NCBI GenBank assembly: GCA_964537405.1
Contig: CAZIBS010000002.1
Coordinates: 1 to 61,287, forward strand
Source of the DNA: an uncultured Thermoanaerobaculia bacterium
GTDB lineage: Bacteria > Acidobacteriota > UBA4820 > DSQY01
DNA: 61,287 nt
Reading direction: 5' to 3'
The translations under genes were made by a program, and so were the position numbers. This document shows positions 8,495 to 58,718 of this stretch, in pieces. A model generated the notes under the pieces. It was given only the letters and a program-made list of their open reading frames with translations, searched no databases and was not told where the DNA came from. How positions within the stretch are numbered: the first letter of the stretch is position 1; every line of letters begins with the position of its first letter.

Positions 8495-8626
8495 GGCTCC
8501 TCCTTGGTTTTCCACCGTTGGAAGTGTAGCGCAATCGGTACGAAAAAAGAAGCTTTAGACGGTGGTTTCAGGGTTTACGGGTACACTTCCCCGGCCAACG
8601 GTGATATAATTGTTATTGGGGGTGCT

Positions 8627-9292
8627 ATGGTAAAGGTAATTATCTGTAGCGAAGAGGAAAACGGCCCTCTGGAGCATCCCCTGCTTCGGAGAGAAAACGT
8701 TGAATTGCTGCGTTTTAAAGACACCGCGAAGGCTTTCATCAAGCTGATGGATTCCCCCTTTGACATCTTTATCTGGGAGCAGACCCTGGAAACCGAAGAG
8801 GCCCTGGTTTTCCTGGACCACATCCAGAAAGCGGCCAAGGATACCCGCTTGAAGGTAATCTGCTGCTGGAAGGGGCCGATTCCGAACAAGCTTCCCCCGG
8901 TCGTTTGCAGGTCTTTCAGCTTTCCACCCGACGAAAAGGATTACGGCGAATGGCTCTCTAACTGTCTTAATGCTCCAGCGCGCAAGGCAAGACGCGTACT
9001 TATCCGGGTTCGCCTCCTGGTAGAGCATACCGGCGCCGGAACCCTCTGTTCGACGATAAACGTGAGCAGGGAAGGATTGCTCATAGAGTCCAACAAATCC
9101 CTGCGGATTGGAGGGATCTACATTATCACCTTCCTCGGTCTTGGGGGCAAGCCCCTTCAACCCTTCAAGACGCGCATCATCCGGAGGGATGCTCCTCCGC
9201 GCGGAAAGTTGTCCCTCCATTACTACGCCGGGACCTTCGAGGATGTGCCCGAAAACCAGAGGGACGCCCTTGAAGAAGCGTTGAAGCTGTAG
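8627..9292 (+). CDS. PilZ-domain c-di-GMP receptor with receiver-like N-terminal domain
   Basis: The PilZ signatures RRVLIR (RxxxR) and NVSREG (D/NxSxxG) are present. I chose the ATG at 8627 (GGGGGTG 4 nt upstream). The track's earlier start at 8399 overlaps the divergent gene. Confidence 0.8.
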   Translation: MVKVIICSEEENGPLEHPLLRRENVELLRFKDTAKAFIKLMDSPFDIFIWEQTLETEEALVFLDHIQKAAKDTRLKVICCWKGPIPNKLPPVVCRSFSFPPDEKDYGEWLSNCLNAPARKARRVLIRVRLLVEHTGAGTLCSTINVSREGLLIESNKSLRIGGIYIITFLGLGGKPLQPFKTRIIRRDAPPRGKLSLHYYAGTFEDVPENQRDALEEALKL

Positions 9293-12759: not shown

Positions 12760-12765
12760 TTGCCA

Positions 12766-12946
12766 AAATTCCGGGATTGAAACGTCCGGGGCTTCGAATC
12801 GCCGGCGCTTCTGCTTTGTCAGCCTTTGGCCTCCGGCTCCTCCATGTACGCAGGTACTATTCCGTAGCGGAGGCCCCGGCTTTCGCGCCGGGCGGCCCAA
12901 TCCGCGCGGAACGCGCCTTTCTCCCTCCCTTCGGTCGGGCGGCAGG
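12766..12946 (+). repeat. member of the dispersed intergenic element family (about 181 nt) in an ORF-free convergent gap
   Basis: It starts with AAAATTCCGGGATTGAAACGTCC. It contains GGAACGCGCC (compare GGAACGCGCGCC at 2436-2447) and ends with CCTTCGGTCGGGCGGCAGG, which is related to the CCTCGGTTAGGCGGTGG end motif. It is rich in GC stems, including two hairpins with a CGAAG loop on the reverse strand just downstream. Confidence 0.4.
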
Positions 12947-21838: not shown

Positions 21839-22211
21839 TGATGAAGTGAAGCTGATTTTTGCTTCCAGGGGAAAAGGGTAGAGTAGAGAGCCGGAGCGGT
21901 TTTTTAGGGTCGGGCCTAACGGTTGCCGCCCCTTTCGTCCGGCAGTGCCTCACCAACCTCTCCATGTTTGGCTCTAACCCTCCCTCATCAAACCGTGCGT
22001 GCGGTTTTCCCGCACAAGGCTTTCCGATGCCCTTCACCGCAAGGTATGCATATTCGCCAATCCCGCCGTCGTCGACACATTGTAAAGCCCGCACCTGTTG
22101 CATAAGTCCCCGCTTGGAAATCGTTTGTATCCTGCGCCTCCGGTTCTTATCTTGTGTCTCTTACGAAAGTGGGTCCGAACACGCTATTACACATATCCTT
22201 ACAATGGCCCT

Positions 22212-23576
22212 TCACAGGTCGAACTTCTTGAGACGGTAGCGGAGGGTGTCGCGTGTAAGGCCGAGGAGTTTGGCGCTGCGCGTCTGGTTCCCCCCGGTTC
22301 GGCTGAGAGCTTGCTCGATCAGGCTGCGTTCCATCTCTTCGAGTATGACGCCTCCCGGTGGAAGAACGAACACGTGTTCCGCCGACCGGTAGGGATTCTG
22401 GACGAGGATGTCCATGGGAAGGTCGGTTCTGTCGATGAGTTCCTTGTCTTCGAGAATCATTACCTTTTCTATGAGATTCTTTAGCTCACGGATGTTGCCT
22501 GGCCATGGATGCTCGATTAGTACCCGCATCGCGGCGTTGGTTACGCCGCGCGTATTCTTCTTGAACGCCCTGTCAAAGTTACCGATGAAGTACTTCACCA
22601 GAAGCGGGATGTCCTCCGGACGTTCCCTGAGGGGGGGAATCGTAATGGGGATCACCTTCAGTCTGTAGTATAGGTCCTTACGAAAAACGCCCGAAGCGAC
22701 GGCCTGCCTGAGGTCGGCGCTGGAAGCGGCGATGACCCGCACGTCAATGTGTATGTCGCGGGTGCCGCCCGCCCTCTTAAACCTCCGGTCTTCCAGGAAC
22801 CTGAGCAGTTTGAACTGGATGCTCGCACCAATCCGGCCTATTTCGTCCAGGAAGGCCGTTCCCCCGTCGGCGAGTTCGAATAGGCCCTTCTTGGCCGTGG
22901 TCGCCCCTGGAAATACGCCCTTTTCGTATCCGAAGAGTTCATAATCAAGGTTCTCCTCGGACATGGCCGAACAGGCCACGCTCATGAATGGTTTTTTTGT
23001 ACGATCGCTGGCGAAGTGAATCGTGTTAGCCATAAGGTCTTTGCCCGTTCCGCTCTCGCCCTGCAACAGTATGGTTGTGGCTGAAGAAGCAGCTATCTTC
23101 TCAATGAGTTGGAAGATCTCCATCATGCGTGCGTTCTTGCCCACCAAGTTGCCGACGCCGAAGCGTCTTTCCTGGACTTTGCGATAGCGATTCAACTCCC
23201 GCTTGAGCGAGGTGTTTTCGAGGGCTTTCTTCACGCTGATGAGAAGTTCTTCAAATTCGAATGGTTTATTCAGGTAATCGAAAGCGCCGAGCTTCATGGC
23301 TTCGATAGCGCTTTCAACCGTACTGTAAGCGGTCATCATGATAACCGGAAGTGGCTCAAAGTGCGGAAGTATGTTCCTTAAAACCTTCAGCCCATCCATG
23401 TCCGGGAGGCGGTAGTCGAGTAGAACCAGATCCACGTCCTTTTCCTCCAGGGCCTTGAGGGCGTCTTCTCCCCGGTCGGTTTCAAGGGTTTCGTAACCGG
23501 CCTTTTTAAGATGATTAGCCAGAGACCACCGGATCAGCTTTTCGTCCTCGACCAGGAGAATAACTTCCTTTGCCAC
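22212..23576 (-). CDS. sigma-54-dependent response regulator (NtrC family: REC-AAA+-Fis HTH)
   Basis: REC (DLVLLDYRLPDMDG), Walker A (GESGTGKD) and a C-terminal HTH (QTRSAKLLGLTRDTLRYRLKKF) are present. The sigma-54 contact loop reads GVFPGA instead of GAFTGA. The GTG start overlaps the kinase stop. Confidence 0.95.
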   Translation of the reverse strand: MAKEVILLVEDEKLIRWSLANHLKKAGYETLETDRGEDALKALEEKDVDLVLLDYRLPDMDGLKVLRNILPHFEPLPVIMMTAYSTVESAIEAMKLGAFDYLNKPFEFEELLISVKKALENTSLKRELNRYRKVQERRFGVGNLVGKNARMMEIFQLIEKIAASSATTILLQGESGTGKDLMANTIHFASDRTKKPFMSVACSAMSEENLDYELFGYEKGVFPGATTAKKGLFELADGGTAFLDEIGRIGASIQFKLLRFLEDRRFKRAGGTRDIHIDVRVIAASSADLRQAVASGVFRKDLYYRLKVIPITIPPLRERPEDIPLLVKYFIGNFDRAFKKNTRGVTNAAMRVLIEHPWPGNIRELKNLIEKVMILEDKELIDRTDLPMDILVQNPYRSAEHVFVLPPGGVILEEMERSLIEQALSRTGGNQTRSAKLLGLTRDTLRYRLKKFDL

Positions 23577-28708: not shown

Positions 28709-29002
28709 CTATTTCCTGAGCGCGTCTTTCAAGGTCTTGGAAGGCTTGAAAGCCGGATAACGGCGTGTGGGCACCTTCACTTTGCTCCCGGTCTTTGGAT
28801 TGCGCGCCTGCCTGGCCGTTCTTTCCCTGACGTAAAACGTCCCGAACCCGGAGATGATAACCTTTTCTCCCAGCTTCAGCGTAGTCGAGATGAGCCCCTG
28901 ACCAGGTTTGGAATCCGTAAGAGCTTCGAGGACCGCTCGTACGTCTTTCTGTGGCAGGCCCGTCACTTCCGCAAGGTTTTTGATCAATTCTGTTTTCGTC
29001 AT
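28709..29002 (-). CDS. hup: HU/IHF-family DNA-binding protein
   Basis: 97 aa: MTKTELIKNLAEVTGLPQKDVRAVLEAL...GFGTFYVRERTARQARNPKTG. It has a basic C-terminal extension. Confidence 0.9.
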   Translation of the reverse strand: MTKTELIKNLAEVTGLPQKDVRAVLEALTDSKPGQGLISTTLKLGEKVIISGFGTFYVRERTARQARNPKTGSKVKVPTRRYPAFKPSKTLKDALRK

Positions 29003-29029: not shown

Positions 29030-29059
29030 AGTATATTCGTACTTCAAGCGGATTGTCAA
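29030..29059 (-). promoter_or_regulatory. sigma-70 promoter candidate for hup
   Basis: The reverse strand reads TTGACA, 18 nt, then TATACT, ending 27 nt upstream of the ATG. Confidence 0.5.
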
Positions 29060-29295
29060 GGGGTTAGTTTATCGTAGGTGCATGTTCCACGCAAGAGCCG
29101 CCCCAAAATCCCGCGATGGGTGATCGAACGGCCGGGAAAGACTCTGCGGTCCATGGTTTTGTGCCTATGGCGCTTCACCCCAAGGGATTGGGGGCCTTCG
29201 GGCCGGAGGCCAAGAAAGCGCCGAGGGTGGGGTGGGAATGGCCCTCCCCGTTCCAGGAGATGCTTATTTCCCCGGGCCGCGATTAAAAGACGCAG

Positions 29296-29318
29296 ACGTT
29301 TCAATCGCGGAATTCGGG
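29296..29318 (-). repeat. TTCC-N5-TGAAAC family motif forming the 5' arm of a 13-bp hairpin
   Basis: The reverse strand reads CCGAATTCCGCGATTGAAACGTC. CGCGATTGAAACG pairs with CGTCTTTTAATCGCG just downstream. Further downstream, TTGGCCTCCGGC and CCCTCGG resemble parts of the element at 12766-12946. Confidence 0.35.
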
Positions 29319-29359
29319 CCGCCCGGGGAATTTGCATCGTCTCTCGCCGGGGGCGGTAT

Positions 29360-31024
29360 TCATGGAAGGTAGTCTCCCAGCTCATGGCCGTCCACCAAAC
29401 CTCTTCGCGCCGCGTTAAGAACCCGTTCACCCAGATTGGTGCCCCCGGATTCGGCGATCCGACGGTGCAACTCTTCGGCGGTAGGTTCATCCTCGAATAA
29501 TCCCCTGCTCTCCTCGCCCAGGGGAATCCATTCCAGTATCTCAACCGAGTGGAGCGACTCCCACGTGAGGCACTTTTCGCATCCCTGCCGGGTAAAGAGG
29601 GAGTAAGCCCCCCCCGAACGACCGGAAACCCGGACGGGAAGCTTGCAGTCGGGGCAGAGAGCCGGAAGTGAAGCCACGGTCAGGATGCCCTTGAGTACGC
29701 CCGCCCGCAGGGGCGAACGGAAGTTGTTTCTCCACAGCCAGCGGAGGGCCGCAAGGGCATCGGGCTGGTGCAGGACGGCCAGGACACGGGTATGAGAGGC
29801 TGCCAACATGATCAACTCCATGGACATCCTCTCCTTGACGGGAAAGCAGGTGAAGAGTTCCGGATCCTGCTTCAGGGCCGTGGCGATGAGTTCCGGCCAC
29901 GTGGCGCCCTCCTCCCGCGAAACCTCCACCTGGGATGTGTTTTCAATGGCCAGCATGGAGTATTCCTCAAGCGCAACGGCTGCTTGGCCTCTGCTAGCGA
30001 GGTGGCTCAACAACGAATAGTAAACCTGGTACATGCCGGGTCCCGGCGGGCCGCTCATGATTACCAACCCGGGTGTTTTGTGCAGGGCCTTATTCAACGA
30101 CGCTCCTTCGGCCTCTCCCAGTTGGCCCGCCAGTTTCGTCCAGTTCCTGCTGAACACCTTCTCGTCGTAAAGCGTCAGGGTGTATCTTGTTCCCTGGAGG
30201 GTGGGAATCCCCTTTACGTAGAGAGTCATGAAACGGGAGCCGGCCTGGAGTCTCACGCGCCCCTCGATGCGTCCCCCTCTCCGGTGTTCCCGAATTCGTG
30301 CCAGCTCTCTCAGCAGGGCGTCCATCTCCTCCCGCTTCTTGGGGTGGAGCCCGAAGCGGTCCTCCACCTTGTCGGGCCTCTTGAAAGATATCTTAAGGTT
30401 TTTCTCGCCGGGGTTGATATAGAGGGTCCTGCAACCCGTTCTGATAGCCTCGGCAAGAATGGTCCTTAACCAATCGGTAGCGGAGGAATCCGGTTTAAGC
30501 ACGGACCAGTGGAGAGGCCTGATTCTGGGTGAACGGGAAGAAAGGATAAAGAGGTGGTCACCCGAGAGGCTCCTTACAACGCCGGGGTCCTTGGCGACTC
30601 CGTAGAAGCGTTCGAGGGCGTTGACGATCGTCTCTCGGGGACAGACCACCGGATCGATGGAAAGCCCCGTTAACTCCTCTATGGCGGGAATAATGCTGGG
30701 ATTGTCGAGGTCGGCGATGGCAACGGTCAGCACGTCTCCCCGTCTCTCCACCGGAATCACCTGGTAAAACTGGGCGATATTGGCGGGAAGAGTATCCAGA
30801 ACGGATTCGTCCGTAATCCAGCGGTTGAGGTTGTACGGGATGAGTCCCATCGACTCCCGCAGGAATTGGCTTAAGCGCTCCACGTTTACGTAACCCATGC
30901 GGATCAGGTGGTAGCCAAGCCGCCCACCCTGGCTTTTTTGGACCTCAAGGGCGCTGTTAAGCTCCTCTTCCGTCAGCAGCCCCTCCCTGAGAAGGAGCGT
31001 ACCCATTGCGGTGTGTTCGCTCAT
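29360..31024 (-). CDS. PilB/GspE-family protein with intact MshEN (c-di-GMP-binding) N-domain and degenerate ATPase domain
   Basis: Tandem 24-aa MshEN motifs (MGTLLLREGLLTEEELNSALEVQ, spacer KSQGG, then RLGYHLIRMGYVNVERLSQFL). Walker A reads GPPGPGMY instead of GPTGSGKT. The Walker B region reads FTCFPVKE instead of MVGEIRD. CxxC...CxxC is retained (CPDCK...CEKC). Confidence 0.85.
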   Translation of the reverse strand: MSEHTAMGTLLLREGLLTEEELNSALEVQKSQGGRLGYHLIRMGYVNVERLSQFLRESMGLIPYNLNRWITDESVLDTLPANIAQFYQVIPVERRGDVLTVAIADLDNPSIIPAIEELTGLSIDPVVCPRETIVNALERFYGVAKDPGVVRSLSGDHLFILSSRSPRIRPLHWSVLKPDSSATDWLRTILAEAIRTGCRTLYINPGEKNLKISFKRPDKVEDRFGLHPKKREEMDALLRELARIREHRRGGRIEGRVRLQAGSRFMTLYVKGIPTLQGTRYTLTLYDEKVFSRNWTKLAGQLGEAEGASLNKALHKTPGLVIMSGPPGPGMYQVYYSLLSHLASRGQAAVALEEYSMLAIENTSQVEVSREEGATWPELIATALKQDPELFTCFPVKERMSMELIMLAASHTRVLAVLHQPDALAALRWLWRNNFRSPLRAGVLKGILTVASLPALCPDCKLPVRVSGRSGGAYSLFTRQGCEKCLTWESLHSVEILEWIPLGEESRGLFEDEPTAEELHRRIAESGGTNLGERVLNAARRGLVDGHELGDYLP

Positions 31025-31088: not shown

Positions 31089-31529
31089 TCAGCGCCTGAA
31101 GGATATTTTGGTCCACCGTCCCGGTACGTCTTTCCATTGAACCGGCTCCCCCCCGTCGAGTGTATAGCTTCCCGCCCCCCTGAAGTGGGCCTTGCCGAAG
31201 CCTTTGACCCTTATCCCCAGGTTCCATCCGCGGATCTCCAGGTGGGCGCCTGGGCCGATGCTGTCTACGCTGCCCTTGAAGTGGTAGTAATTGCCTCCAT
31301 CCGCGGTTTTCTTGAGCTTCCCCCACTTCCCGTGGATCTTGAGAAAGAGGTTCGACCTGTTCTTGATAACCAGCGTTCCCCTGCCCGAGAGGTGTACCTT
31401 TCCCGTGCCCCAAAAACGAATCCAACCGTGGCTGCCATGGGCAATAAGAAGGTGCGCCCGGCCGGCGGCCAATGGCGCCAGGCACACCAACAGGACAACA
31501 ACGGCGATCGCCAAACGCTTTCTTTTCAT
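31089..31529 (-). CDS. small secreted protein, function unknown
   Basis: 146 aa with signal peptide MKRKRLAIAVVVLLVCLAPLAAG. It is Gly/Lys/His-rich and beta-like. Its ATG overlaps the upstream TAA by 1 nt. Confidence 0.7.
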   Translation of the reverse strand: MKRKRLAIAVVVLLVCLAPLAAGRAHLLIAHGSHGWIRFWGTGKVHLSGRGTLVIKNRSNLFLKIHGKWGKLKKTADGGNYYHFKGSVDSIGPGAHLEIRGWNLGIRVKGFGKAHFRGAGSYTLDGGEPVQWKDVPGRWTKISFRR

Positions 31530-31951
31530 TAGCCTGCTCCCATTCTCATCAATACTTTCTTAATGCAAGTATCTTGAACGACCATGAGCCCGCCACCGGA
31601 GGCTATCCCGGCGGCAACGTCATTGGACACGCCCTCCTGCATCCAAAGTGCCTTCGCCCCCGTAGAAACGGCCTCCCCGGCTATGGGCGCCACGGACTCG
31701 GAGCGGCGAAAGACATCCACGATATCCACCGCTTTGCCGTAAACCGCCAGGCTTGGATAGCACCGTTCTCCCAAAACTTCTTCCAGTTTTGGATTAATGG
31801 GAATCACCCTGTAACCACGGGCCTGTAGGAACGAGGCCACGTCATGGCTGGCTCGTTCGGGTTTGTTCGAGATTCCAACAACGGCAATCGTTACCGCATT
31901 CCGCAGCAACGTTCGGATTTTTTCGTTCACGGCGCCCTCCATCAACGCCAT
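31529..31951 (-). CDS. CoA-binding domain protein (YccU/YneT-like)
   Basis: TIAVVGISNKPERASHDVASFLQARGYRVIPINP is typical of the family. I chose the start at 31951 (MALMEG...). The longer ORF, to 32005, begins inside a repeat motif. Confidence 0.8.
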   Translation of the reverse strand: MALMEGAVNEKIRTLLRNAVTIAVVGISNKPERASHDVASFLQARGYRVIPINPKLEEVLGERCYPSLAVYGKAVDIVDVFRRSESVAPIAGEAVSTGAKALWMQEGVSNDVAAGIASGGGLMVVQDTCIKKVLMRMGAG

Positions 31952-31993
31952 TGTAATAGTCCCGGATGAAAAGGGGAAGTGAAAACTCCAACC

Positions 31994-32008
31994 TGAATCC
32001 GCCATCTA
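31994..32008 (-). repeat. exact 15-mer TAGATGGCGGATTCA (third copy)
   Basis: Identical to 2459-2473 (+) and 61004-61018 (+). Confidence 0.85.
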
Positions 32009-32067: not shown

Positions 32068-32244
32068 CCATAATCCACCGCCTAACCGAGGACCGAGGGC
32101 AGCGGGGAAGGCTTAGATGCCAGGCGCCGAGACGATTTGAGCGCAGGCGTAGTAGCGCTACGTTGAGCATCAAATCGGCGAAAGCAACACCGCAGATGAG
32201 CCTTATCCCGCAGTACGAATCCCGGTGCAGGTGGTGAATTATGG
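32068..32244. repeat. 177-nt rod-folding intergenic element, copy 1 (MITE-like element or structured RNA; strand undetermined)
   Basis: 174 of 177 nt are identical to 58542-58718. It has 16-nt terminal inverted repeats and internal nested stems. Confidence 0.85.
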
Positions 32245-38975: not shown

Positions 38976-39106
38976 CCAAACCCTCCTTGAGATAGACCTG
39001 TTATTCCTGCTTTCCACCGCGCCGGTTTTTTTATTCCCACCCTCAGGGAACAATGATACTACTTCAATGCTTCACGCACCGGAATGACGCCCTCCGGTTG
39101 CTACTA

Positions 39107-39122
39107 TTGGCATTAACCTTGC
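39107..39122 (+). promoter_or_regulatory. sigma-54 (-24/-12) promoter
   Basis: TGGCATTAACCTTGCA has GG-N10-GC spacing with TGGCAT at -24 and TTGCA at -12. It lies 36 nt upstream of the ATG at 39158. Confidence 0.6.
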
Positions 39123-39157
39123 ATCTTCTGTATCCTTTTGGTTGGAGGTGTGCCAAT

Positions 39158-40588
39158 ATGGCTCATGGGACAATTGTCATCCTGGAAGACGAAGCCGAAA
39201 ATCTCAGGAGCCTCACGCGCGCCCTGGAAAAGGTGGGCTACGATGTTCACGGCTACAGGGATCCCAGGAAAGGCATGGCTTTTCTTGACGACCACCGGAA
39301 TGTCGATATCGTTCTGACCGACATCAGAATGCCGGCCATGGACGGCATGGCCGTACTGAAGCACGTCAAGGAAAACCGGCCCGGCCTGCCCGTGCTTCTT
39401 ATAACCGCTTTCGGTTCCGTCGAGTCCGCCGTGGGAGCGATGAAGGTAGGAGCGGACGACTACCTGGCGAAACCGATCGACCTCTACGAACTCAGGCGCC
39501 GCGTCGAGGCACTCGTTGAAAAGCACCGCCTTGCCATGCGGGTCGATGAACTTCAAGCAAGGTTGGACGAACGCTTCGGCTTTGAGAACATCGTCGGAAC
39601 GAGTCGCCCCATGCAGGAACTCTTCCAGCAGATAAAGATGGTGGCTCCTACCAGGGCTACGGTTCTCATCAACGGTGAGTCGGGAACCGGCAAGGAACTG
39701 ATAGCCAACGCCATCCACCACAACTCCGACCGCAAGCGCAATCGCTTCCTGCCGATCAACTGCGCCGCGATTCCCGCCACCCTCATGGAGAGCGAACTAT
39801 TCGGCCACGAAAGGGGCTCTTTTACGGGCGCGGAGAAAACCCACCCCGGTAAGTTCGAACAGGCCGACCGCGGAACGCTCTTCCTGGACGAGATCGGGGA
39901 GTTGCCCATCGGCCTGCAGGCCAAATTGTTGCGAGTCCTTGAAGAGCGCATGGTTACCCGCGTGGGAAGTTCCCACCCCATACCGGTGGACGTCCGCATA
40001 GTTACCGCGACCAATCGCAATATCGAGGAAATGACGGCCGCCGGGGATTTTCGCAAAGACCTGTTTTACCGTCTCAAGGTCGTCGAGCTGCGCATCCCTC
40101 CTCTCAGGGAAAGAAAGGAAGACATTCCCCTCCTGGCCCACAGCTTCCTGGAGCAGTTAAACCGGGAGCACGGCAGAACTATAGAGAAAATTTCACCGGA
40201 GGCGCTCTCCGCCCTGGTCGCCTACCCCTGGCCCGGAAACGTAAGAGAGCTGAGAAACGTGATCGAGAGAACGGTTGTCTTCTGCCCGGAAAACGAGATA
40301 AGAATGACGCACCTTCCCGTTGAACTGCAAAGCGGCGTCGCCTTGACCACCCACGCCGGTCTACCTTCCCTACACGCGGCCGCCTCCACCGGTTTTGACG
40401 TCAGAGGCGAGGTGGTGCCGCTGGAAGAGATGGAAAGGCGCGCTATCTTACGAGCCCTTGAAGAAACCGGCGGGAACAAGACCCGGGCCGCCCGCCTGCT
40501 CGGCATCGGCCTGAGAACACTCCACCGTAAACTAAAGCAGTACCGGTATGATAACGCAACCATAAATTCAGAGAGGAGTATGCAATGA
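39158..40588 (+). CDS. sigma-54-dependent response regulator (NtrC family), no adjacent kinase
   Basis: REC (DIVLTDIRMPAMDG), Walker A GESGTGKE, GSFTGA loop and Fis-type HTH (KTRAARLLGIGLRTLHRKLKQY). The ATG at 39158 follows GGAGGTG. Confidence 0.95.
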   Translation: MAHGTIVILEDEAENLRSLTRALEKVGYDVHGYRDPRKGMAFLDDHRNVDIVLTDIRMPAMDGMAVLKHVKENRPGLPVLLITAFGSVESAVGAMKVGADDYLAKPIDLYELRRRVEALVEKHRLAMRVDELQARLDERFGFENIVGTSRPMQELFQQIKMVAPTRATVLINGESGTGKELIANAIHHNSDRKRNRFLPINCAAIPATLMESELFGHERGSFTGAEKTHPGKFEQADRGTLFLDEIGELPIGLQAKLLRVLEERMVTRVGSSHPIPVDVRIVTATNRNIEEMTAAGDFRKDLFYRLKVVELRIPPLRERKEDIPLLAHSFLEQLNREHGRTIEKISPEALSALVAYPWPGNVRELRNVIERTVVFCPENEIRMTHLPVELQSGVALTTHAGLPSLHAAASTGFDVRGEVVPLEEMERRAILRALEETGGNKTRAARLLGIGLRTLHRKLKQYRYDNATINSERSMQ

Positions 40589-43853: not shown

Positions 43854-45082
43854 GCCTGGCTTCCTTTGTAGGATTCCGTTACCTCTTCGCCCGCAGGCGT
43901 CAGGCCTTTATTTCCCTGATTACTGTAATATCCATCCTTGGCATCATGGTAGGCGTGATGGCCCTGATTATCGCCCTGGCCATCTCCACCGGCTTCACAA
44001 CCCGCATTCAAGAGAAAATTCAGCTCCTGAACGCGGATCTCAACGTTCTGGGAGGAGCCGGTGAAATCTCCCCGGTCCACTACAAGGAGATAGCGAAGAT
44101 TCTCAAGGATTCCCCGCTGGTCAAGGCCTATGCACCCCTCGTCCTCGGCACCGGCCTGGTGAGTGGACCCACAACCCGGGTCGGCGTCGTCGCCAAGATC
44201 ATGGGAGTAAATCCCGCCAAGGAAGCCGCCATCGTCAACCTCAAGCCCTACATCAAGGGCTCGGCATTTCTTGGTCAGATGCCCGACGGAAGCCACGGAG
44301 CCGTTCTGGGCACCGACCTGGCCGACACACTACGGGTGGGGACCGGCGACACGGTGCAACTCCTCGCCCCGCGCCTGACGCTCTCTCCCTTCGGGAACAT
44401 TCCCAAGCTCGTTTCCTTGAAGGTTACGGGGATACTTGATACCGGCTATTACCTCTACGACACCCAGTTCATCTATACCGATATCGGGCTGGCACGCCGT
44501 CTCTTCACCCAACCCGGCACCGTGAGCGCCGTCCAGATTCGTCTTAAGAATCCGGCCGCCATTGACTCCGCGCGCCGAAGCCTCCAGACCAGTTTGGGAA
44601 GCAACTACAGGATACTGGACCTCGTGGAGAGCAACGCCGAGTTCTTCAAGGCGCTCAGGATGGAACGCATGCTGCTCTTTCTTGCTATCGGTTTAATAGT
44701 GATGGTGGCCGCCCTGAACATCATCTCAACCCTGATCCTGATGGTCATGGAAAAGGTCAGGGACATTGGAATCCTACGAAGTATGGGCGCGTCACGCTCC
44801 GACATTCAACGGATTTTCCTCTTTCACGGGTTGATAATAGGCTTCACCGGCACGGCCCTGGGCGCCGTACTGGGCGCACTTGCATGTTCCATCCTGGACC
44901 GAACCCACGCGATACCGCTCTCCCTCGACGTCTATCCCCTTCCCTACGTCCCGTTTATCACCTCTCCCGGCCAGATCGCCGCCGTTTGCGCCTTCGCCCT
45001 CCTCGTTTCCTTCATGGCTACTCTCTACCCGGCCTACCGGGCCGCCCGCCTGGATCCCGTTGAAGCGTTGAGGTACGAGTGA
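43850..45082 (+). CDS. lolC: lipoprotein-releasing ABC transporter permease (LolC/LolE family)
   Basis: 410 aa with a MacB/FtsX-type 4-TM topology and a typical N-terminus (FRYLFARRRQAFISLITVISILGI). Confidence 0.9.
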   Translation: MSLASFVGFRYLFARRRQAFISLITVISILGIMVGVMALIIALAISTGFTTRIQEKIQLLNADLNVLGGAGEISPVHYKEIAKILKDSPLVKAYAPLVLGTGLVSGPTTRVGVVAKIMGVNPAKEAAIVNLKPYIKGSAFLGQMPDGSHGAVLGTDLADTLRVGTGDTVQLLAPRLTLSPFGNIPKLVSLKVTGILDTGYYLYDTQFIYTDIGLARRLFTQPGTVSAVQIRLKNPAAIDSARRSLQTSLGSNYRILDLVESNAEFFKALRMERMLLFLAIGLIVMVAALNIISTLILMVMEKVRDIGILRSMGASRSDIQRIFLFHGLIIGFTGTALGAVLGALACSILDRTHAIPLSLDVYPLPYVPFITSPGQIAAVCAFALLVSFMATLYPAYRAARLDPVEALRYE

Positions 45083-45741
45083 TGGTGCGAATTGAAGGCG
45101 TCCGTAAGGATTTCAGGTCGGGAGACAGGACTATTCACGTCCTCAAGGGAGCGACCTTGGCGGTAGCACGCGGCGAGGCGGTGGCCCTTACCGGTCCGTC
45201 GGGTGTAGGAAAGAGTACTCTTCTCCACCTCATCGGCGGCCTTGACCGTCCCGATGGCGGCACGATAACTGTTGCCGGGAAAGAGGTTACCTCCCTCAGT
45301 GGAAAAGCCCTGGATTCTTTTCGTTGCTTAACCATAGGCATCGTCTATCAGTTTCACTTCCTCCTGCCGGAATTCACCGCCCTTGAAAACGTGATGATCC
45401 CGGCCATCACGGCGGGAAACAACCGCACGGCCAAAGAGCGGGCCGCGGATCTGCTGTCCGAAGTCGGCCTTGCCGAACGGCTTCACCACGTCCCGTCGAA
45501 GCTCTCGGGAGGAGAGCAGCAGCGCGTGGCCTTGGCGAGGGCCCTCATGAATCACCCGAAGCTGCTCCTGGCCGACGAACCTACCGGCAACCTGGACGAG
45601 GAGACCTCTGCCCGGGTGTTCGCTCTACTCATGGAACTTAAGCAGAATCACGGTTTGACGGTTTTACTCGCCACTCACAACCTGGGGCTGGCGGCTTCCT
45701 GCGACAGGACGCTTCGGCTCAAGGATGGCGAAATAGGATGA
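45079..45741 (+). CDS. lolD: lipoprotein-releasing ABC transporter ATP-binding protein
   Basis: Walker A GPSGVGKST, signature LSGGEQQRVALARAL and Walker B LLLADEPTGNLD. It overlaps lolC by 4 nt. Confidence 0.9.
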   Translation: MMVRIEGVRKDFRSGDRTIHVLKGATLAVARGEAVALTGPSGVGKSTLLHLIGGLDRPDGGTITVAGKEVTSLSGKALDSFRCLTIGIVYQFHFLLPEFTALENVMIPAITAGNNRTAKERAADLLSEVGLAERLHHVPSKLSGGEQQRVALARALMNHPKLLLADEPTGNLDEETSARVFALLMELKQNHGLTVLLATHNLGLAASCDRTLRLKDGEIG

Positions 45742-46003: not shown

Positions 46004-48361
46004 ATGAACCGGAGACTGACTAAGACATTGATCGTTCTTCTTGCGCTCGTCGCGGCCGTCACTCCGGTGGCCCAAACCGTCGGCGTAAAACCCGGGAAAG
46101 TCACAAAAAAAAAGGTTCTTATCGAAAAAATCGTCCTTGAAGGCAATGAGCGCTTAACCCAGAAAGCCTTCTTGGCGCTTACGAGCCTGCGTGTCGGTGA
46201 ACCGTACGACAAGGCCCGGGTTATTAAAGCGTTCCACAAAATCTGGGAGTCCGGTCTTCTCGACAATCTATCCATCGACAGCAAACCGGGAAAGACCGGG
46301 GTCATACTCACCTTCCACATCAAGGAACGCCCCATCCTGGCCTCCATTGACTACACGGGGAGCAAAACGCTGACCAGCACAACCGTCCTGGATAAGATCA
46401 AAGAGAACAAGGCCAACATCAAGTCGGGCACCGTTCTGGACTACGCCAAGATCAAGAAGCTGGAGGCGGCACTGCGCTTCATGGCGGCGGAAAAGGGGTA
46501 CCCCGACGCTCTGGTGACCTCCAAGCTCCAATCCATGGGGCCTGCCCAGGTTGCCCTTACCATAAACGTGAAGCAAGGACCAAAGGCCAGAATAGAGAAG
46601 GTTAAGTTCATGGGCGTACACGCCTTTTCCCAGCGCAAACTGCGCCTCACTCTCAAGAAAACCCGCTCTCACTGGTGGCTTTCGTGGGCCACGCGCCACG
46701 ACATCTACTCCGAGAGCAGGTATTACAAAGACGTGAAAAAACTTCGCAAACTTTACGAATCCAGGGGCTACCTCGACGTGGATATCGGCGATCCAATTAT
46801 AGACAGCCACATGAACAGGAAGAAAACGAAAAAGTGGCTGGTACTGACGATCCCCATCACCGAAGGCGTTTCCTACAAGTTGGGCACGATATCCTTCAAA
46901 GGGAACCACGTTTTCACAAGTGATGAACTCCACAAGATGATCCTGCTCAAAAAAGGAAAAACTCTGAACAAACTAGCCATCGACTACGTGCGCAAAGGTA
47001 TCGAAGCCAGGTACGGAGAAAAGGGCTACATTTACGCCACCGCCACCCCCATCTTTGATAAACACCCCGGCAAGAAGATCGCCAACGTTACCTTTTTAAT
47101 CACCGAGGACCATGTTTACTACGTAAACAGGATTGAGTTCTACGGCAACACCTCCACCCGCGACTACGTACTCAGGCGGGAGATGGAGATCTACGAACAG
47201 GAACTCTTCAACTACGTAAAGTACAAGCGTGGACTCTACCTCTTAAAACAGCGGGCTATCTTCACGATCAAGAAGGATCCGATTATTACGAAGGTTCCCA
47301 ACACAAACACGGTTAACATCAAGATCGTGGGAGAGGAGGCCAATAAGAACGAGTTGCTTTTCGGCGGTGGTTACGGTGGAATTAACGGTTTCTTTATCTC
47401 CGGCTCTTTCAAGACCTACAACTTCATGGGAATGGGGACGACCCTCTCCCTCAACGCGGAGGTGGGGAAATACCAAAAGCTGTACTCCATAAATTACTCC
47501 GACCCGTGGCTCTTCGGAAAACGCATAGGGGGCAACTTCTCCGTCTTCAATTCCCAATTGGACTACCTGGAGTTCAAACAGGGATCAAAGGGCGGTTCCA
47601 TGGGGATTTCCTTTCCCCTTGGGGACTTTGCCTACTGGACCGTCGGCTACCGTTATGACCGCTCCGACGTTACGGGTATCAGCACCAATTACATCAGCCC
47701 CGACTACGAGGCGTACCTGAACAACTCCGCTACCTCGTCGGTATTGCTGGGCATCGGTTTCAACACCGTCAACAATCCCTTCAGACCGATGATGGGTTCG
47801 TCCGCCTCCTTGAACGCCACCGTTGCCGGGGGTCCCGTAGGCGGCGATAATGATTTCATTAAGTCGACTTTTGACGGCTCGTTTTACCTACCTACCTTCA
47901 GGAAACAGAATCTGGCCTGGCGGCTGAGCATGGGATACATTACCGCCTACGACGGGCACCCGATTCCCATCTGGGAACGATTCTTCCTCGGCGGACAAAG
48001 CTCACTGAGGGGCTTCGCCATCCGCTCAATCTATCCAATGACTAAAGACGCGCGCTACTTCCTTGATCCCTACACGGGAACTATCGAAGGCGGAAACCGC
48101 TTCTACCTGCTTAATAACGAGTACGTCTTTCACCTTACGGAGTATGTGGACGTGGCGCTATTCATGGACATCGGCAACACCTACCACGAGCGGCAGAAGA
48201 TGCAGCTGTCGAATTACAGGGCCAATGCGGGTGTTGAACTGCGCTTCTTCATACCCACCTTCAACGTACCTCTGCGACTAATTTATGCTTCGAATCTCAA
48301 ACCACGGCCTAACGATGACTTCAGCAGCTTTCAAATCTCCATCGGTCTGACGTTCCAATGA
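46004..48361 (+). CDS. bamA: outer-membrane protein assembly factor BamA
   Basis: Signal peptide from the ATG at 46004 (MNRRLTKTLIVLLALVAAV), POTRA repeats and a C-terminal 16-strand barrel. It is followed by skp-lpxD-fabZ-lpxA, the conserved context. Confidence 0.95.
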   Translation: MNRRLTKTLIVLLALVAAVTPVAQTVGVKPGKVTKKKVLIEKIVLEGNERLTQKAFLALTSLRVGEPYDKARVIKAFHKIWESGLLDNLSIDSKPGKTGVILTFHIKERPILASIDYTGSKTLTSTTVLDKIKENKANIKSGTVLDYAKIKKLEAALRFMAAEKGYPDALVTSKLQSMGPAQVALTINVKQGPKARIEKVKFMGVHAFSQRKLRLTLKKTRSHWWLSWATRHDIYSESRYYKDVKKLRKLYESRGYLDVDIGDPIIDSHMNRKKTKKWLVLTIPITEGVSYKLGTISFKGNHVFTSDELHKMILLKKGKTLNKLAIDYVRKGIEARYGEKGYIYATATPIFDKHPGKKIANVTFLITEDHVYYVNRIEFYGNTSTRDYVLRREMEIYEQELFNYVKYKRGLYLLKQRAIFTIKKDPIITKVPNTNTVNIKIVGEEANKNELLFGGGYGGINGFFISGSFKTYNFMGMGTTLSLNAEVGKYQKLYSINYSDPWLFGKRIGGNFSVFNSQLDYLEFKQGSKGGSMGISFPLGDFAYWTVGYRYDRSDVTGISTNYISPDYEAYLNNSATSSVLLGIGFNTVNNPFRPMMGSSASLNATVAGGPVGGDNDFIKSTFDGSFYLPTFRKQNLAWRLSMGYITAYDGHPIPIWERFFLGGQSSLRGFAIRSIYPMTKDARYFLDPYTGTIEGGNRFYLLNNEYVFHLTEYVDVALFMDIGNTYHERQKMQLSNYRANAGVELRFFIPTFNVPLRLIYASNLKPRPNDDFSSFQISIGLTFQ

Positions 48362-48546
48362 GCAAAGACTCGCGCGCCTTTCTATATCTCAACCTGTCGA
48401 ATTACAGGGCCGACGCCGGTGTTGAACCGCGCTTCTTCATACCCACTTTCAACGTACCTCTGAGACCAATCTATGCTTCGAATCTCAAACCACAACCTAC
48501 CGATGACTTCAGCCACTTTCAAATCTCCATCGGTCTAACGTTTTAA
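48358..48546 (+). pseudogene. tandem duplicate of the bamA 3' end, readable as a 62-aa ORF
   Basis: 48393-48542 matches 48206-48354 at roughly 90 percent identity by hand count. The ATG overlaps the bamA stop (ATGA). The product repeats the last ~50 BamA residues with two Leu-to-Pro changes and ends in ...GLTF. Confidence 0.6.
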
Positions 48547-48565: not shown

Positions 48566-49075
48566 ATGCGTAAAACTCTCATATTCGTCCTTGCCGCCGT
48601 TACCATGCTCGCGTCGCTCGGCGCAATAGCGCAGGACAAAACCAGGGTGGTTAACGCCCGCAAGGTTTATAACGAGTGTAAGCTCGGCAAGCAGATACAA
48701 CTCAAGCTCAAGGCCCTCTACGAGCAGAAAAAAAAGGAGATCGACGCCAAAAAGGCGGCGCTGGACGCATTGCAGAAGCAAGCTCAGGATCCGAAGATCA
48801 GCCAGCAGAAGATGCGCGACCTCAAGAACAAATACAACCAGAAATACTACATCTTTCAAGCCTACGTAAAGTCAGATCAGGACGATATGCGTAGCAAGGC
48901 GCAGCAACTACAAGGCGGCTTTCAGAAGAAGTTCATGGCCGTCGTCAACCAGTACGCCCGTTCACAAGGTTTCGCCCTCGTTCTCGAACAAAGTGCGTGC
49001 CTGTATAACGCCAACGCACTGGACATTACGCCGGAAATCGTAGCGGCCATGAACCAGGCATACCCCGGCACCTGA
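48566..49075 (+). CDS. skp: OmpH/Skp periplasmic chaperone
   Basis: 169 aa with a signal peptide and a K/Q/E-rich helical body. It sits at the conserved position between bamA and lpxD. Confidence 0.9.
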
Positions 49076-49080
49076 TTCCA

Positions 49081-50109
49081 ATGAAAGTCTCCACTATCGC
49101 CGAGCGGCTCGGTCTCAGTGTAGAGGGCGACGCTCGGATCGAGATCGCGGGAGTGGCTCCGCTTAGCGTGGCGGGCGAGAGCGACCTTTCCTTCCTGAGC
49201 AACCCCAGGTACCGTGAGACAGCGAAGAGTAGCGCGGCCGGCGCTATAGTGGTGTCCGGGGAAACCACCCTACCCGGACACACCCTTCTTATAGCCGGAA
49301 ATCCCTACCTGGCCTTCGCCCGCGCCATTGAACTTTTCCACCCCCCAAGAATCTTCGAAGGGGGCATCCATCCCACGGCCCTGGTGGGAAAGGAGTGCAG
49401 CTTTGCACCCAGTTGCCACGTCGGGCCTTATGTTGTAATCGGGGACCGCGCCGTCATCGGGGAGGGGAGCGTTATCGAAGCCGGGTGCGTGGTGGGGCGC
49501 GACTGTGTTATTGGAGAACGCTGTCGTCTCTACCCCCGCGTGGTGCTCTACGACGACACACGACTCGGCAACGAGGTGATCCTCCACTCCGGGGTGGTCG
49601 TCGGCTCCGACGGCTTCGGTTTCGCCCATGACGGCGGGCGCTACGTAAAGGTGCCCCAGATCGGTCGGGCCGTCGTTGAAGACAGCGTGGAAATCGGCGC
49701 CAACTCTACCGTTGACCGGGGAGCACTCCAAGAGACGCGTATAGGCGGCGGCACCAAGATAGACAACCTCGTCCAGGTAGCTCACAACGTGCGAATCGGG
49801 CACTCCTGCATCCTCGTCGCCCAGAGCGGAATCAGCGGCAGCACGTCCCTGGGCGAAGGAGTCATTCTCGCCGGACAGTCCGGTATCGTAGGGCACGTAA
49901 CCATCGGAGACGGTACGCGTATCGGTGCGAAATCCGCCGTGACGAAGAGTCTCCCGGCGGGCTCCTTCGTAACCGGGCACCCCGCCCAACCGCACAGGAA
50001 GTGGCTTAAGGAGAGGGCCATGGCTGCCAGATTGGAGGAGATTATCAATCGTCTGCGTGCTTTGGAAAGCAACCATGCGGACCAGCGTGTTTTGGAGAAA
50101 AAACCATGA
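49081..50109 (+). CDS. lpxD: UDP-3-O-(3-hydroxyacyl)glucosamine N-acyltransferase
   Basis: 342 aa with left-handed beta-helix hexapeptide repeats and a typical N-terminus and context. Confidence 0.95.
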
Positions 50110-50537
50110 TGGATATACTTGAAATCCAAACTATCCTGCCCCACCGCTATCCCTTCCTGCTCGTTGACCGTATTCTGGAGGTCGAGGAAGGGAAGCGCAT
50201 TGTTGGCATCAAGAACGTGACCATAAATGAAGAGTTTTTCCAGGGTCACTTTCCGGGTCATCCCGTCATGCCCGGCGTTTTGATCATAGAGGCCATGGCC
50301 CAGACCGGCGGCGTATTGATGCTCCGCGATCTGAAAAACAGGGGCGAGAAACTCGCCTATTTCATGGGCATAGACGACGCGCGCTTCCGCAAACCCGTCG
50401 TTCCTGGAGACCAGCTCCGCTTCGAAGTTGAAGTTCTTAAACGCAAGGCCACGACTTGCAAACTCAAGGGCAAAGCCTTTGTCGACGACAAACTCGTTGC
50501 CGAAGCGGTACTGCTCTCGGCAATCGTCGACCGCTGA
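50106..50537 (+). CDS. fabZ: 3-hydroxyacyl-ACP dehydratase
   Basis: 143 aa with the motif [12 protein letters not shown]...[16 protein letters not shown]. Confidence 0.95.
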
Positions 50538-50596
50538 AGCCGTAGAAATCAACACCTCCACCGACGGACGGGGAGGCGCACTAAACAGGATGAACC

Positions 50597-51385
50597 ATGA
50601 ATAGAATCCATCCCACGGCAACCATCGACCCGGCGGCCGCCATCGGCGATGGCTGTACGATCGGCGCCTACACGGTCATCGGCCCGGAAGCCGTGGTGGG
50701 CGACGACTGCGTCATCGGGCCCCACTGCGTTATCCACGGCAGGGTGGCTATCGGCGCAAAGAACACCTTTATTTCGCAGGCGGCCGTCGGCGGGCCGCCC
50801 CAGGACACTTCCTACAAAGGGGAACCAACCGGGCTGGTCATAGGCTCCGGCAACACCTTCCGCGAGTTTGTCACCCTGAACCGCGGCACGGCCAAGGGTG
50901 GCGGAACCACCAGGATCGGTGACAACAACCTGATGATGGCCTACGCCCACATTGCCCACGACTGCCTGGTCGGCGACAACACCGTCTTCGCCAACGCCGC
51001 GACACTGGCCGGCCACGTTGAGGTAGGAAACCACGCAACAATCGGCGCCTTTTCCGCCGTCCACCAATTCTGTAGGATAGGCAACTATGCCTTCATCGGC
51101 GGTTTTTCGGTAATTACGAAGGACGCAATGCCCTTCATCAAGACCGTTGGCGCCCGCAGCGAGGCCCGTCTCTTCGGAATCAACACCATCGGTCTTGAGA
51201 GGAAGGGCTTTTCGCCCGAGACGATCTCCTCATTGAAGGCTGCCTATCACACCCTCTTCCTCTCCAAGAAGCTCCTGAAAGAGGCTGTAGAAGAACTTGA
51301 GGAGGAAGACTCCGGCAATGCGTGCGCCGAGGTCAGGCACCTGTTGGACTTTATCAAGTCCTCAACCAGGGGCATCCAGCGGTAG
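50597..51385 (+). CDS. lpxA: acyl-ACP--UDP-N-acetylglucosamine O-acyltransferase
   Basis: 262 aa with hexapeptide repeats and a helical C-terminal domain, located after fabZ. Confidence 0.95.
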   Translation: MNRIHPTATIDPAAAIGDGCTIGAYTVIGPEAVVGDDCVIGPHCVIHGRVAIGAKNTFISQAAVGGPPQDTSYKGEPTGLVIGSGNTFREFVTLNRGTAKGGGTTRIGDNNLMMAYAHIAHDCLVGDNTVFANAATLAGHVEVGNHATIGAFSAVHQFCRIGNYAFIGGFSVITKDAMPFIKTVGARSEARLFGINTIGLERKGFSPETISSLKAAYHTLFLSKKLLKEAVEELEEEDSGNACAEVRHLLDFIKSSTRGIQR

Positions 51386-51418
51386 CCTGAAACTTCGCGT
51401 GAAAGGGTTCCCATCGCA

Positions 51419-58541: not shown

Positions 58542-58718
58542 CCATAATCCACCGCCTAACCGAGGACCGAGGGCGGCGGGGAAGGCTTAGATGCAAGGCG
58601 CCGAGACGATTTGAGCGCAGGCGTAGTAGCGCTACGTTGAGCATCAAATCGGCGAAAGCAACACCGCAGATGAGCCTTATCCCGCGGTACGAATCCCGGT
58701 GCAGGTGGTGAATTATGG
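58542..58718. repeat. 177-nt rod-folding intergenic element, copy 2
   Basis: 174 of 177 nt are identical to 32068-32244, in the same orientation. Confidence 0.85.

Follow-up and report, generated by a model that had tools for sequence, protein, structure and literature searches.

To our knowledge, MshEN domains are among the highest-affinity receptor modules for cyclic di-GMP (c-di-GMP), and they have been studied so far on active enzymes, namely the ATPases of type IV pili (T4P) and type II secretion systems (T2SS) and glycosyltransferases. MshEN-type PilBs comprise the proteins of Geobacter (5tsg/5zfr), Myxococcus xanthus and Chloracidobacterium thermophilum as well as MshE of Vibrio cholerae and Thermus PilF. 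Here we describe a PilB homologue, termed pseudo-PilB, which is encoded at 29360..31024 on the minus strand of a 61,287-nt stretch (“the window”) of contig CAZIBS010000002.1 (GCA_964537405.1; GTDB lineage Bacteria; Acidobacteriota; UBA4820; DSQY01). Pseudo-PilB resembles the MshEN-type PilBs in domain order, length and fold, in the two-motif c-di-GMP module, whose motif II stretch GGRLGYHLI is near-identical in myxobacterial PilBs, and in the zinc tetracysteine. In contrast, the Walker A Lys/Thr, the Asp-box D/P/E and the Walker B Gly-Glu, which are intact in those enzymes, are replaced throughout the pseudo-PilB family, the gene is not located beside pil genes, its score with the PilB model TIGR02538 is 133 vs 675 bits, and its conservation pattern is inverted. 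We consider pseudo-PilB most likely to be an ATPase-dead, signalling-only PilB derivative that is predicted to be gated by c-di-GMP, a receptor rather than a motor.

Two observations on other PilBs match the mechanism proposed below, by analogy. ATPase-deficient PilB of M. xanthus remains able to drive exopolysaccharide (EPS) signalling when pili are absent, its proposed signalling state being the nucleotide-free form (PMC5544727); in an acidobacterial PilB, the binding sites for c-di-GMP and ADP are allosterically coupled (PMC6957770). The pseudo-PilB family resembles a naturally fixed form of the M. xanthus signalling state; the Walker A variant of M. xanthus PilB likewise is ATPase-deficient but continues to signal (PMC5544727). 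However, that variant was engineered from a bifunctional protein and has a Dif/EPS output, whereas the loss in pseudo-PilB is ancient and lineage-wide. Reuse of a dead catalytic scaffold as a ligand-controlled adaptor is also seen in FimX, with its degenerate GGDEF/EAL domains, and in BcsE, with its degenerate RecA-like ATPase module. In proteins of this type the ligand usually binds to the dead catalytic or allosteric site, while in pseudo-PilB its predicted site is a separate, originally regulatory domain, and the part that died is the output motor. A dead enzyme acting as c-di-GMP receptor thus is a known concept; the combination of a dead output motor with its original regulatory ligand domain would be the new aspect. 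Among ~8.3 million searchable papers, our literature search retrieved no published description of such proteins, no report on PilB as a pseudo-ATPase, and none of relevance on MshEN in Acidobacteria.

The window has a GC content of ~58%, and its sequence is also present in hydrothermal-vent metagenomes. Orthologous loci that share its gene order come from metagenome-assembled genomes of Acidobacteriota, for the most part of the class Thermoanaerobaculia. The pseudo-PilB gene codes for an open reading frame (ORF) of 554 aa, which comprises an MshEN N1 domain, an N2D domain, a degenerate T2SSE ATPase C-terminal domain (CTD), and the zinc tetracysteine. Pfam detected MshEN (PF05157; 63.2 bits, cut-off 23.1) followed by T2SSE (PF00437; 85 bits, cut-off 24.9). 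Searching the PDB returned Geobacter PilB as the top match (E 2e-47), collinear across residues 5–543. An AlphaFold2 (AF2) model of the protein, as proposed in an earlier note on this DNA, was built on 21 family sequences and reached a mean predicted local distance difference test score (pLDDT) of 81; Foldseek aligned its N2D and CTD with PilB, PilF and GspE at target-normalised template modelling (TM) scores of 0.74–0.76 (E 4e-27), the value of 0.76 referring to Geobacter PilB 5tsh. From the architecture, the collinear PDB match, and the Foldseek scores it follows that pseudo-PilB is a genuine PilB homologue, a member of the T2SSE superfamily that carries an MshEN domain. In the N2D domain (residues 181–300; 30125..30484, all parts of the gene being on the minus strand), alignment to Geobacter PilB shows the arginines of the E-G-R256-x-R258 element to be kept, and both are present in 53/53 family members. 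The zinc site C457-xx-C460 ... C482-xx-C485 (29570..29656) is invariant in the family alignment, and its four cysteines are also invariant in the sister clade described below. The collinearity of the C-terminal domain with secretion ATPases and the retained CxxC...CxxC motif, both pointed out in the earlier note, were thus borne out.

A database search delineated a discrete family of ~54 clusters with 42–67% identity, below which the score drops from 510 to 187 bits. The degenerate form that the earlier note had read from the window is present as intact ORFs of 552–570 aa in at least 53 clusters, and scanning one genome per GTDB species revealed 27 loci at an identity of at least 47%. All 27 species representatives belong to Acidobacteriota, mostly to the class Thermoanaerobaculia, including Thermoanaerobaculaceae and Thermoanaerobaculum aquaticum. 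Loci of Myxococcales and others that match the GGRLGYHLI pattern were rejected as family members, as they encode canonical PilBs with intact Walker boxes. Residue frequencies given in this work are counts in alignment columns over 53 family members.

The published MshEN consensus consists of two copies of (R/K/L)LGxx(L/V/I)(L/V/I)xxG(L/V/I)(L/V/I)xxxxLxxxLxxQ separated by a spacer of five residues (PMC11731258). The ligand is contacted by backbone amides of Gly and Leu residues and by three-leucine clusters, and an Asp of the C-terminal subdomain, D266 in PilF GSPII-B and D108 in MshE, touches the guanine (PMC11731258, PMC12943098). In pseudo-PilB, as checked on the ORF translation, the N-terminal strings reported earlier are MGTLLLREGLLTEEELNSALEVQ (residues 7–29) and RLGYHLIRMGYVNVERLSQFL (residues 35–55), connected by KSQGG (residues 30–34). 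Alignment to PilF GSPII-B, MshE and Geobacter PilB defined motif I as residues 6–29 (A-M-G-TL-LL-RE-G-LL-TEEE-L-NSA-L-EV-Q; 30938..31009) and motif II, which follows after a spacer of exactly five residues as in the consensus, as residues 35–58 (R-L-G-YH-LI-RM-G-YV-NVER-L-SQF-L-RE-S; 30851..30922). The C-terminal MshEN subdomain, residues 59–145 (30590..30850), contains an invariant A-D105-L-D-N-P block. When the 11th consensus position was scored as (LVIF), each motif fitted the consensus at 9/11 key positions. The earlier statement that the pattern is matched twice therefore holds for the spacer and for nine key positions per motif, but motif I starts with A-M-G, deviating at positions 1 (Ala) and 2 (Met), and motif II deviates at position 11 (Tyr) and ends with Ser at position 24.

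Judging from the alignments, the family has fixed these deviations, which are conservative. In motif I, position 1 is occupied by Val (37), Met (12), Ala (2) or Leu (1), not by Arg, and position 2 by Met. The residues G8, G15, L26 and Q29 of motif I and R35, L36, G37, L40, I41, G44 and L51 of motif II are conserved in 53/53 members, L10 and L16 of motif I are likewise invariant, and the segment G33–R42 (GGRLGYHLIR) is invariant in a 21-sequence family alignment. D105, also found in 53/53 members, aligns with the guanine-contacting D266 of PilF GSPII-B. Moreover, NF053729, the curated NCBIfam model of the 53-residue c-di-GMP motif, scored 54.1 bits on pseudo-PilB (cut-off 38). Thermus PilF GSPII-B, which has Lys and Leu at the first positions of its motifs, binds c-di-GMP with an affinity of 6 nM, so a hydrophobic first residue is tolerated, and such a residue has even been put forward as a predictor of very high affinity (PMC11731258). 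The hydrophobic first residue of motif I is, by this analogy, predicted to be compatible with high-affinity binding of c-di-GMP.

The catalytic boxes were located by pairwise and multiple alignment to canonical PilBs. Walker A, canonically GPTGSGKT, reads GPPGPGMY (residues 325–332; 30029..30052); its Lys is replaced by Ile (20), Leu (18), Met (9) or Val (6) and occurs in 0/53 members, and the Ser/Thr position is variable. The Asp box EDPVE is changed to EEYSM (residues 353–357; 29954..29968). Its first Glu (E353) is kept in 53/53 members, while the family shows E/D/M/N/T instead of D, Y/H/N/F instead of P, and L/M/P instead of the second E. At the site of Walker B, FTCFPVKE (residues 391–398; 29831..29854) aligns with (I/V)MVGEIRD (canonical hhhhGEIRD). 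Here the catalytic Glu is Pro in 53/53 members and the Gly is F/N/Y/C/H; the site has acquired a new conserved motif, P-[LIV]-[KR]-[ED]-R, with no variation at P395 and R399 across the family alignment. The His box STLHTNDA corresponds to LAVLHQPDA (residues 415–423; 29756..29782), with the His (H419) retained in 47/53 members, Thr replaced by Gln in 52/53, and Asn replaced by Pro and others. The degenerate Walker A and Walker B strings had been noticed before and are now placed in the alignment; the expected loss of box residues relative to PilB/GspE was found for Walker A and Walker B but not for the His of the His box. Pocket positions kept in the family, besides H419, are G325, G328, E353, K/R397, E/D398, R256 and R258. 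The equivalog models for PilB (TIGR02538; 133.2 bits, cut-off 675.65) and GspE (TIGR02533; 94 bits, cut-off 630.25) both scored below their cut-offs.

The ORF 29360–31024 is spanned by contigs of four independent hydrothermal-vent metagenome runs, which differ by substitutions only, with 0 indels. Neither of the objections foreseen in the earlier note, an alternative P-loop or a frameshift or artefact, materialized: the pattern [GA]xxxxGK[ST] is absent anywhere in all 53 family members, and the four assemblies agree in frame. Since the motif loss is common to 53/53 members and the four assemblies contain no indels, it is neither chance nor artefact. Pseudo-PilB lacks the catalytic features that define functional PilB/GspE, and an annotation as pilus assembly ATPase is unsuitable. 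With its catalytic residues gone, its ORF intact and purifying selection across species, it has the marks of a pseudoenzyme and is predicted to be inactive, in line with the earlier suggestion of a catalytically dead protein.

The distribution of constraint in the family also differs from that in canonical PilBs. Normalized to the whole protein, mean pairwise identity was 1.26 for the MshEN N-subdomain, 1.23 for the MshEN C-subdomain, and 0.87 for the ATPase core, as compared to 0.79, 0.70 and 1.33, respectively, in a set of 85 canonical PilBs, which were picked by motif and are more divergent than the pseudo-PilB family. Compared with real PilBs, constraint is thus inverted, conservation being highest in MshEN and among the lowest in the ATPase core. 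Nei-Gojobori dN/dS values from 273 ortholog pairs were 0.18 for MshEN, 0.29 for N2D, and 0.35 for the CTD, these values being approximate because dS is ~1. All domains are under purifying selection, which is strongest on MshEN; the dead module is selected as well but is more relaxed than the sensor. Replacement residues at the dead site, e.g. Pro395, Lys397 and Gln420, are themselves conserved.

When 1.84 billion representatives were searched exhaustively with HMMER, an intermediate tier of proteins emerged (P0121–P0136 and others) with scores of 180–290 bits and 26–34% identity, whose Walker boxes are degenerate and whose N-termini are of the MshEN type. In a neighbour-joining (NJ) tree with 200 bootstraps, the pseudo-PilB family was monophyletic in 195/200 replicates, all degenerate proteins were separated from 30 canonical PilBs in 175/200, and the sister group of the family consisted purely of degenerate proteins in 200/200, with P0148 as the commonest (137), followed by P0125, P0129 and P0157 (122 each). 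A profile search assigned ~95 clusters to this sister clade, which is mostly from Acidobacteriota, the sources being named Ca. Polarisedimenticolia, ‘Acidobacteria bacterium’, and one Dongiaceae; annotations are ‘hypothetical’ or auto-assigned PilB only. Sister-clade proteins of the P0125/P0129 type are the nearest relatives of the family (210–290 bits), lack Walker A and keep the MshEN motifs and zinc cysteines, but differ by their identity of 25–34% and by GGDEF, SPOR and Lnt operon partners that are not found in the window family. Walker A occurs in 0/91 full-length members; some proteins of the clade retain a Lys or Arg of the P-loop, but with its context shifted, and in several members MshEN (PF05157) is the only Pfam domain still detectable. 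Motif I starts with (R)R-L-L-G in the 37 members where the pattern matched, the Leu at position 1 fitting the published extended consensus.

The sister-clade genes form an operon NfeD – Band_7 – GGDEF – SPOR – pseudo-PilB – Lnt with overlapping stops and starts, in which the GGDEF motif is intact and which is usually followed by RF-HrcA-GrpE-DnaK-DnaJ (loci L053, 1637–8691; L054, 936–6760; L055, 3252–10313; L056, 3277–10379). Variants are GGDEF – PatA_N – SPOR – pseudo-PilB – Lnt (L052, 1–5399) and NfeD – Band_7 – SPOR – pseudo-PilB (P0127 locus). The diguanylate cyclase gene located two genes upstream strongly suggests, through guilt by association, that the dead PilBs of the sister clade sense c-di-GMP, and the operon is a candidate for a dedicated cyclase-receptor module that might be tied to envelope, division or lipoprotein maturation. 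Since the window family has no cyclase partners within 10 kb, c-di-GMP sensing would carry over to it by descent only.

Taken together, these data lead us to assign a probability of about 0.62 to the reading that this PilB-derived pseudo-ATPase acts as a cytoplasmic c-di-GMP receptor. Repurposing of the protein as such a receptor had been suggested before, and the invariant MshEN contact positions, including D105, as well as the closest outgroup, which is operonic with a GGDEF cyclase, speak in its favour. In the mechanism we propose, c-di-GMP would sit between the two 24-residue motifs, where the hydrophobic first residue would stack against one of the guanines in the manner of Thermus PilF GSPII-B. 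Its binding would change the orientation of the MshEN subdomains with respect to the N2D-CTD body, a movement that has been shown in real PilBs. The RecA-like body, presumably unable to bind or hydrolyze Mg-ATP, would be locked in a nucleotide-free ‘signalling’ conformation like that of a PilB Walker A mutant. As such a body would not cycle ATP, occupancy by c-di-GMP would be the sole remaining switch, altering the binding to a partner. The neighbours are of the envelope type, namely exported small proteins in the window family and SPOR, Lnt, NfeD and Band_7 in the sister clade. In both clades the flanking genes code for proteins that are exported or reside in the membrane, which points to a process associated with the envelope or close to the membrane rather than to a pilus. 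In a wider and tentative proposal, a clade near-exclusive to Acidobacteriota may have turned the hexameric PilB motor into a pilus-independent, c-di-GMP-gated inner-membrane scaffold that connects a dedicated cyclase to envelope processes; as a part of the same tentative proposal, its outputs in the sister clade might be SPOR (septal peptidoglycan), Lnt (lipoprotein maturation) and NfeD/Band_7 (membrane microdomains), and might have been rewired in Thermoanaerobaculia.

Gene order was analyzed by targeted tblastn over 32 family loci combined with Pfam labels, as longest-ORF calling was confounded by long antisense ORFs (~58% GC). Two syntenies emerged, with all genes on one strand. In subclade A, to which the window belongs, the order is CoA_binding_2 – small protein – pseudo-PilB – HU – carboxyltransferase – enoyl-CoA hydratase – PAS histidine kinase – sigma-54 regulator. 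Subclade B (Thermoanaerobaculaceae) shows PatA_N – HisPhos – ArgRS – RlmL – small protein – pseudo-PilB – coiled-coil protein – sigma-54 regulator – S49 peptidase, with overlaps of 8 nt between the pseudo-PilB and coiled-coil genes and of 4 nt between the latter and the regulator gene. The CoA_binding_2 gene (31529..32005, minus strand; PF13380, 128 bits), the first of a trio with pseudo-PilB, lies upstream in every subclade A locus and, according to tblastn, is missing from subclade B. The second gene (31089..31529, minus strand) is an ORF for a small protein, Sm, of 146 aa with a signal peptide, which is all-beta and rich in Gly, Lys and His; a homologue is located immediately upstream of pseudo-PilB in 27/32 family loci of both subclades. 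Sm had no Pfam or NCBIfam matches, its AF2 model was weak (pLDDT 65) and without Foldseek matches at E ≤ 0.001, and a word-indexed homology search found three proteins only; kinship with SPOR was rejected (hhalign probability 1.2%). In the window, the CoA_binding_2 and Sm genes overlap by 1 nt and a gap of 64 nt precedes the pseudo-PilB ATG at 31024, exactly as described earlier, but the full trio is conserved in subclade A only.

Downstream of pseudo-PilB, the HU gene (28709–29002, identified by Pfam) is preceded on the minus strand by a sigma-70-like promoter, TTGACA-18-TATACT (29030..29059; 11/12 consensus match). This promoter, a consensus match only, suggests that the pseudo-PilB transcript need not include HU. 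No RNA run containing the pseudo-PilB sequence was found, and an Rfam scan of the locus gave no matches. The intergenic region between pseudo-PilB and HU (29107–29320) showed an assembler depth of 4–5x that of its flanks in four vent metagenomes and many contig breaks, indicating that it holds one or more short dispersed repeats. A 41-nt inverted match connects 12762–12802 with 29279–29319. A sigma-54 response regulator is encoded downstream in both subclades but was not accepted as a conserved partner, orthology being unclear: the subclade B protein shares 46% identity with the other regulator of the window and 37% with the downstream one. The window itself contains two NtrC-type sigma-54 response regulator genes less than 17 kb apart, at 22212–23576 (minus strand) and 39053–40588 (plus strand), with a 44-nt inverted match in the AAA+ region. 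The latter is followed by a DegP-like protease gene, a loose echo of the regulator-S49 peptidase pair of subclade B. PatA_N (PATAN) was also considered; both subclade B and L052 have its gene 4 kb upstream, but as the window yielded no such gene, the lead is a weak one for pseudo-PilB. Three PilF-like proteins of ~886 aa (P0056, P0058, P0059) combine MshEN, T2SSE and PatA_N (PF14332) in precomputed Pfam annotations; together with the PatA_N genes near subclade B and in L052, they hint at a recurrent association of PATAN with PilB-like proteins outside cyanobacteria.

Pfam scans of the substantial window ORFs that were otherwise unidentified detected no T4P/T2SS platform, secretin or pilin genes and no GGDEF, EAL or HD-GYP domains, some ORFs (e.g. 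45079–45741 and 48566–52360) having been identified by eye only, and a six-frame motif scan was likewise empty for GGDEF, EAL, HD-GYP and pilin signatures. Platform, secretin or pilin genes were also not found within ~10 kb in those family loci that carry Pfam annotation, and tblastn detected a second T2SSE gene in 0/32 family loci. The earlier note was therefore right that pilus or T2SS genes are not nearby. It also correctly listed, as the c-di-GMP-related content of the window, a PilZ protein (8399–9292, plus strand; PilZ at ORF residues 195–295, 31 bits in Pfam) and YajQ/DUF520 (59065–59565, minus strand; 177 bits in Pfam) and no GGDEF, EAL or HD-GYP enzyme. Located 20–30 kb away, the two genes are too distant to inform on pseudo-PilB; their products are other candidate cyclic-dinucleotide receptors of the host organism.

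Several points weigh against a c-di-GMP receptor role. R9 of V. cholerae MshE, at position 1 of motif I, is reported to be pivotal (PMC12943098); the window protein has Ala at this position, which is smaller than the Leu or Lys that work in PilF, and the adjacent position 2 is Met instead of Leu. The Ala is the weakest point of the c-di-GMP case for the window orthologue. In the pseudo-PilB family, no GGDEF, EAL or SPOR gene is found within 10 kb, hence relatedness alone links it to a cyclase. The analysis revealed no conserved cytoplasmic partner of pseudo-PilB, and the sigma-54 regulators encoded near it in subclades A and B are not clearly orthologous. Long-branch attraction could inflate the grouping of all degenerate proteins in the tree, and the composition of the canonical set mentioned above likewise qualifies the inverted conservation pattern.

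Among the alternatives, the one that fares best assumes that pseudo-PilB regulates in trans a pilus or T2SS encoded elsewhere, the dead subunit competing with PilB/GspE for PilC/PilM or GspL, or entering mixed hexamers, in a c-di-GMP-dependent manner. Such a role would be a special case of the receptor reading in which the target is defined. The protein has indeed kept the N1D C-subdomain, the N2D arginines, the zinc site and the hexameric-ATPase fold, which PilBs use for docking and oligomerization, and its MshEN C-subdomain, which corresponds to the GspL-binding region of GspE (4pht), is conserved as much as the ligand site. The PatA_N genes near subclade B and in L052 would also fit, since binding of PATAN regulators to the T4P motor has been reported for Synechocystis (bioRxiv 10.1101/2021.06.11.447907). 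We nevertheless regard such a role as unlikely, given the lack of T4P/T2SS genes in the 61-kb window and within ~10 kb of the Pfam-annotated family loci, the lack of a second T2SSE gene in the 32 loci, and the setting of the sister clade among envelope and chaperone genes, not pilus genes.

It is more doubtful still that the MshEN-like module does not bind c-di-GMP and was kept for a protein partner or another nucleotide, pseudo-PilB being a ligand-independent scaffold. Motif I, which lacks the pivotal Arg of V. cholerae MshE and has Met at position 2, would be in agreement with this idea, as would the lack of an adjoining cyclase gene in the window family; degenerate MshEN domains that do not bind c-di-GMP are known from XpsE and PilF GSPII-A (PMC11731258, PMC12943098). 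However, these non-binders deviate far more, the identity of GSPII-A motif II at key positions being ~45% (PMC11731258), whereas pseudo-PilB retains 9/11 key positions per motif, the exact spacer and an invariant guanine-contacting Asp, and passes the curated model NF053729. In the sister clade, Leu at position 1 is within the extended consensus, and a GGDEF gene is located beside the receptor gene.

Residual NTPase activity of pseudo-PilB via a non-canonical active site might be considered because pocket residues persist (G325, G328, E353, Q365, K/R397, E/D398, H419 and R256), but it is very improbable: all 53 members have a hydrophobic residue in place of the P-loop Lys and Pro in place of the catalytic Glu, the Ser/Thr position varies, the residues with which the Asp box coordinates Mg are gone, no member has an alternative Walker A, and few parts of the protein are conserved as poorly as the ATPase core. 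That the gene is a decaying relic or an assembly artefact without function, for which nothing but the motif loss itself can be adduced, is effectively refuted by the intact ORFs of 552–570 aa in at least 53 clusters and 27 species, by dN/dS values of 0.18–0.35 in all domains together with conserved replacement residues (Pro395, Lys397, Gln420), and by the lack of indels across four independent assemblies.

Some further features of the window were recorded. A direct repeat of 177 nt with 98% identity occurs in two intergenic positions, at 32068–32244 between the CoA-binding gene and a gene for acyl carrier protein and at 58542–58718 between the genes for an aldehyde dehydrogenase and YajQ; Rfam gave no match to the 32-kb copy, and the element may be a dispersed repeat, a miniature inverted-repeat transposable element, or an unannotated RNA. 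Rfam matched domains V/VI of a group II intron (RF00029) at 21878–22024 on the minus strand (45.2 bits, gathering threshold 40), between the sigma-54 regulator and an outer-membrane efflux gene; an overlapping ORF of 136 aa had no Pfam match, and no reverse-transcriptase ORF was found near it. A near-tandem duplication of 149 nt (48206–48354 and 48394–48542; 91% identity, 188-nt spacing) covers the 3' end of a BamA/Omp85 gene and the sequence just downstream. At 3639–6734 (plus strand), a protein of 1031 aa is encoded that consists almost purely of ankyrin repeats (Ank_2, 470 bits, 13 stretches) behind an N-terminal hydrophobic leader. An ankyrin-repeat protein of such make-up is unusual in a free-living bacterium.

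If the wider, tentative proposal of a c-di-GMP-gated scaffold holds, these proteins would form a new class of c-di-GMP effectors, with a dead secretion ATPase as the output domain. With a motor that seems to have been dead over long evolutionary time and a receptor module that is the most strongly conserved part, pseudo-PilB would be a natural ‘signalling-only’ PilB, and the family might offer a clean system for finding targets of PilB-type signalling outside pilus building, a question that arose from the work on EPS in M. xanthus. The fixed GGDEF-SPOR-pseudoPilB-Lnt operon of the sister clade provides a concrete, testable candidate for a cyclase-receptor pair. At present the genes receive the automatic annotation ‘type IV pilus assembly protein PilB’, which in metabolic and trait reconstructions of metagenome-assembled genomes would wrongly imply pilus capacity. 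The family may point to a c-di-GMP output pathway that is as yet unexplored in the Acidobacteriota, a phylum both abundant and little studied.

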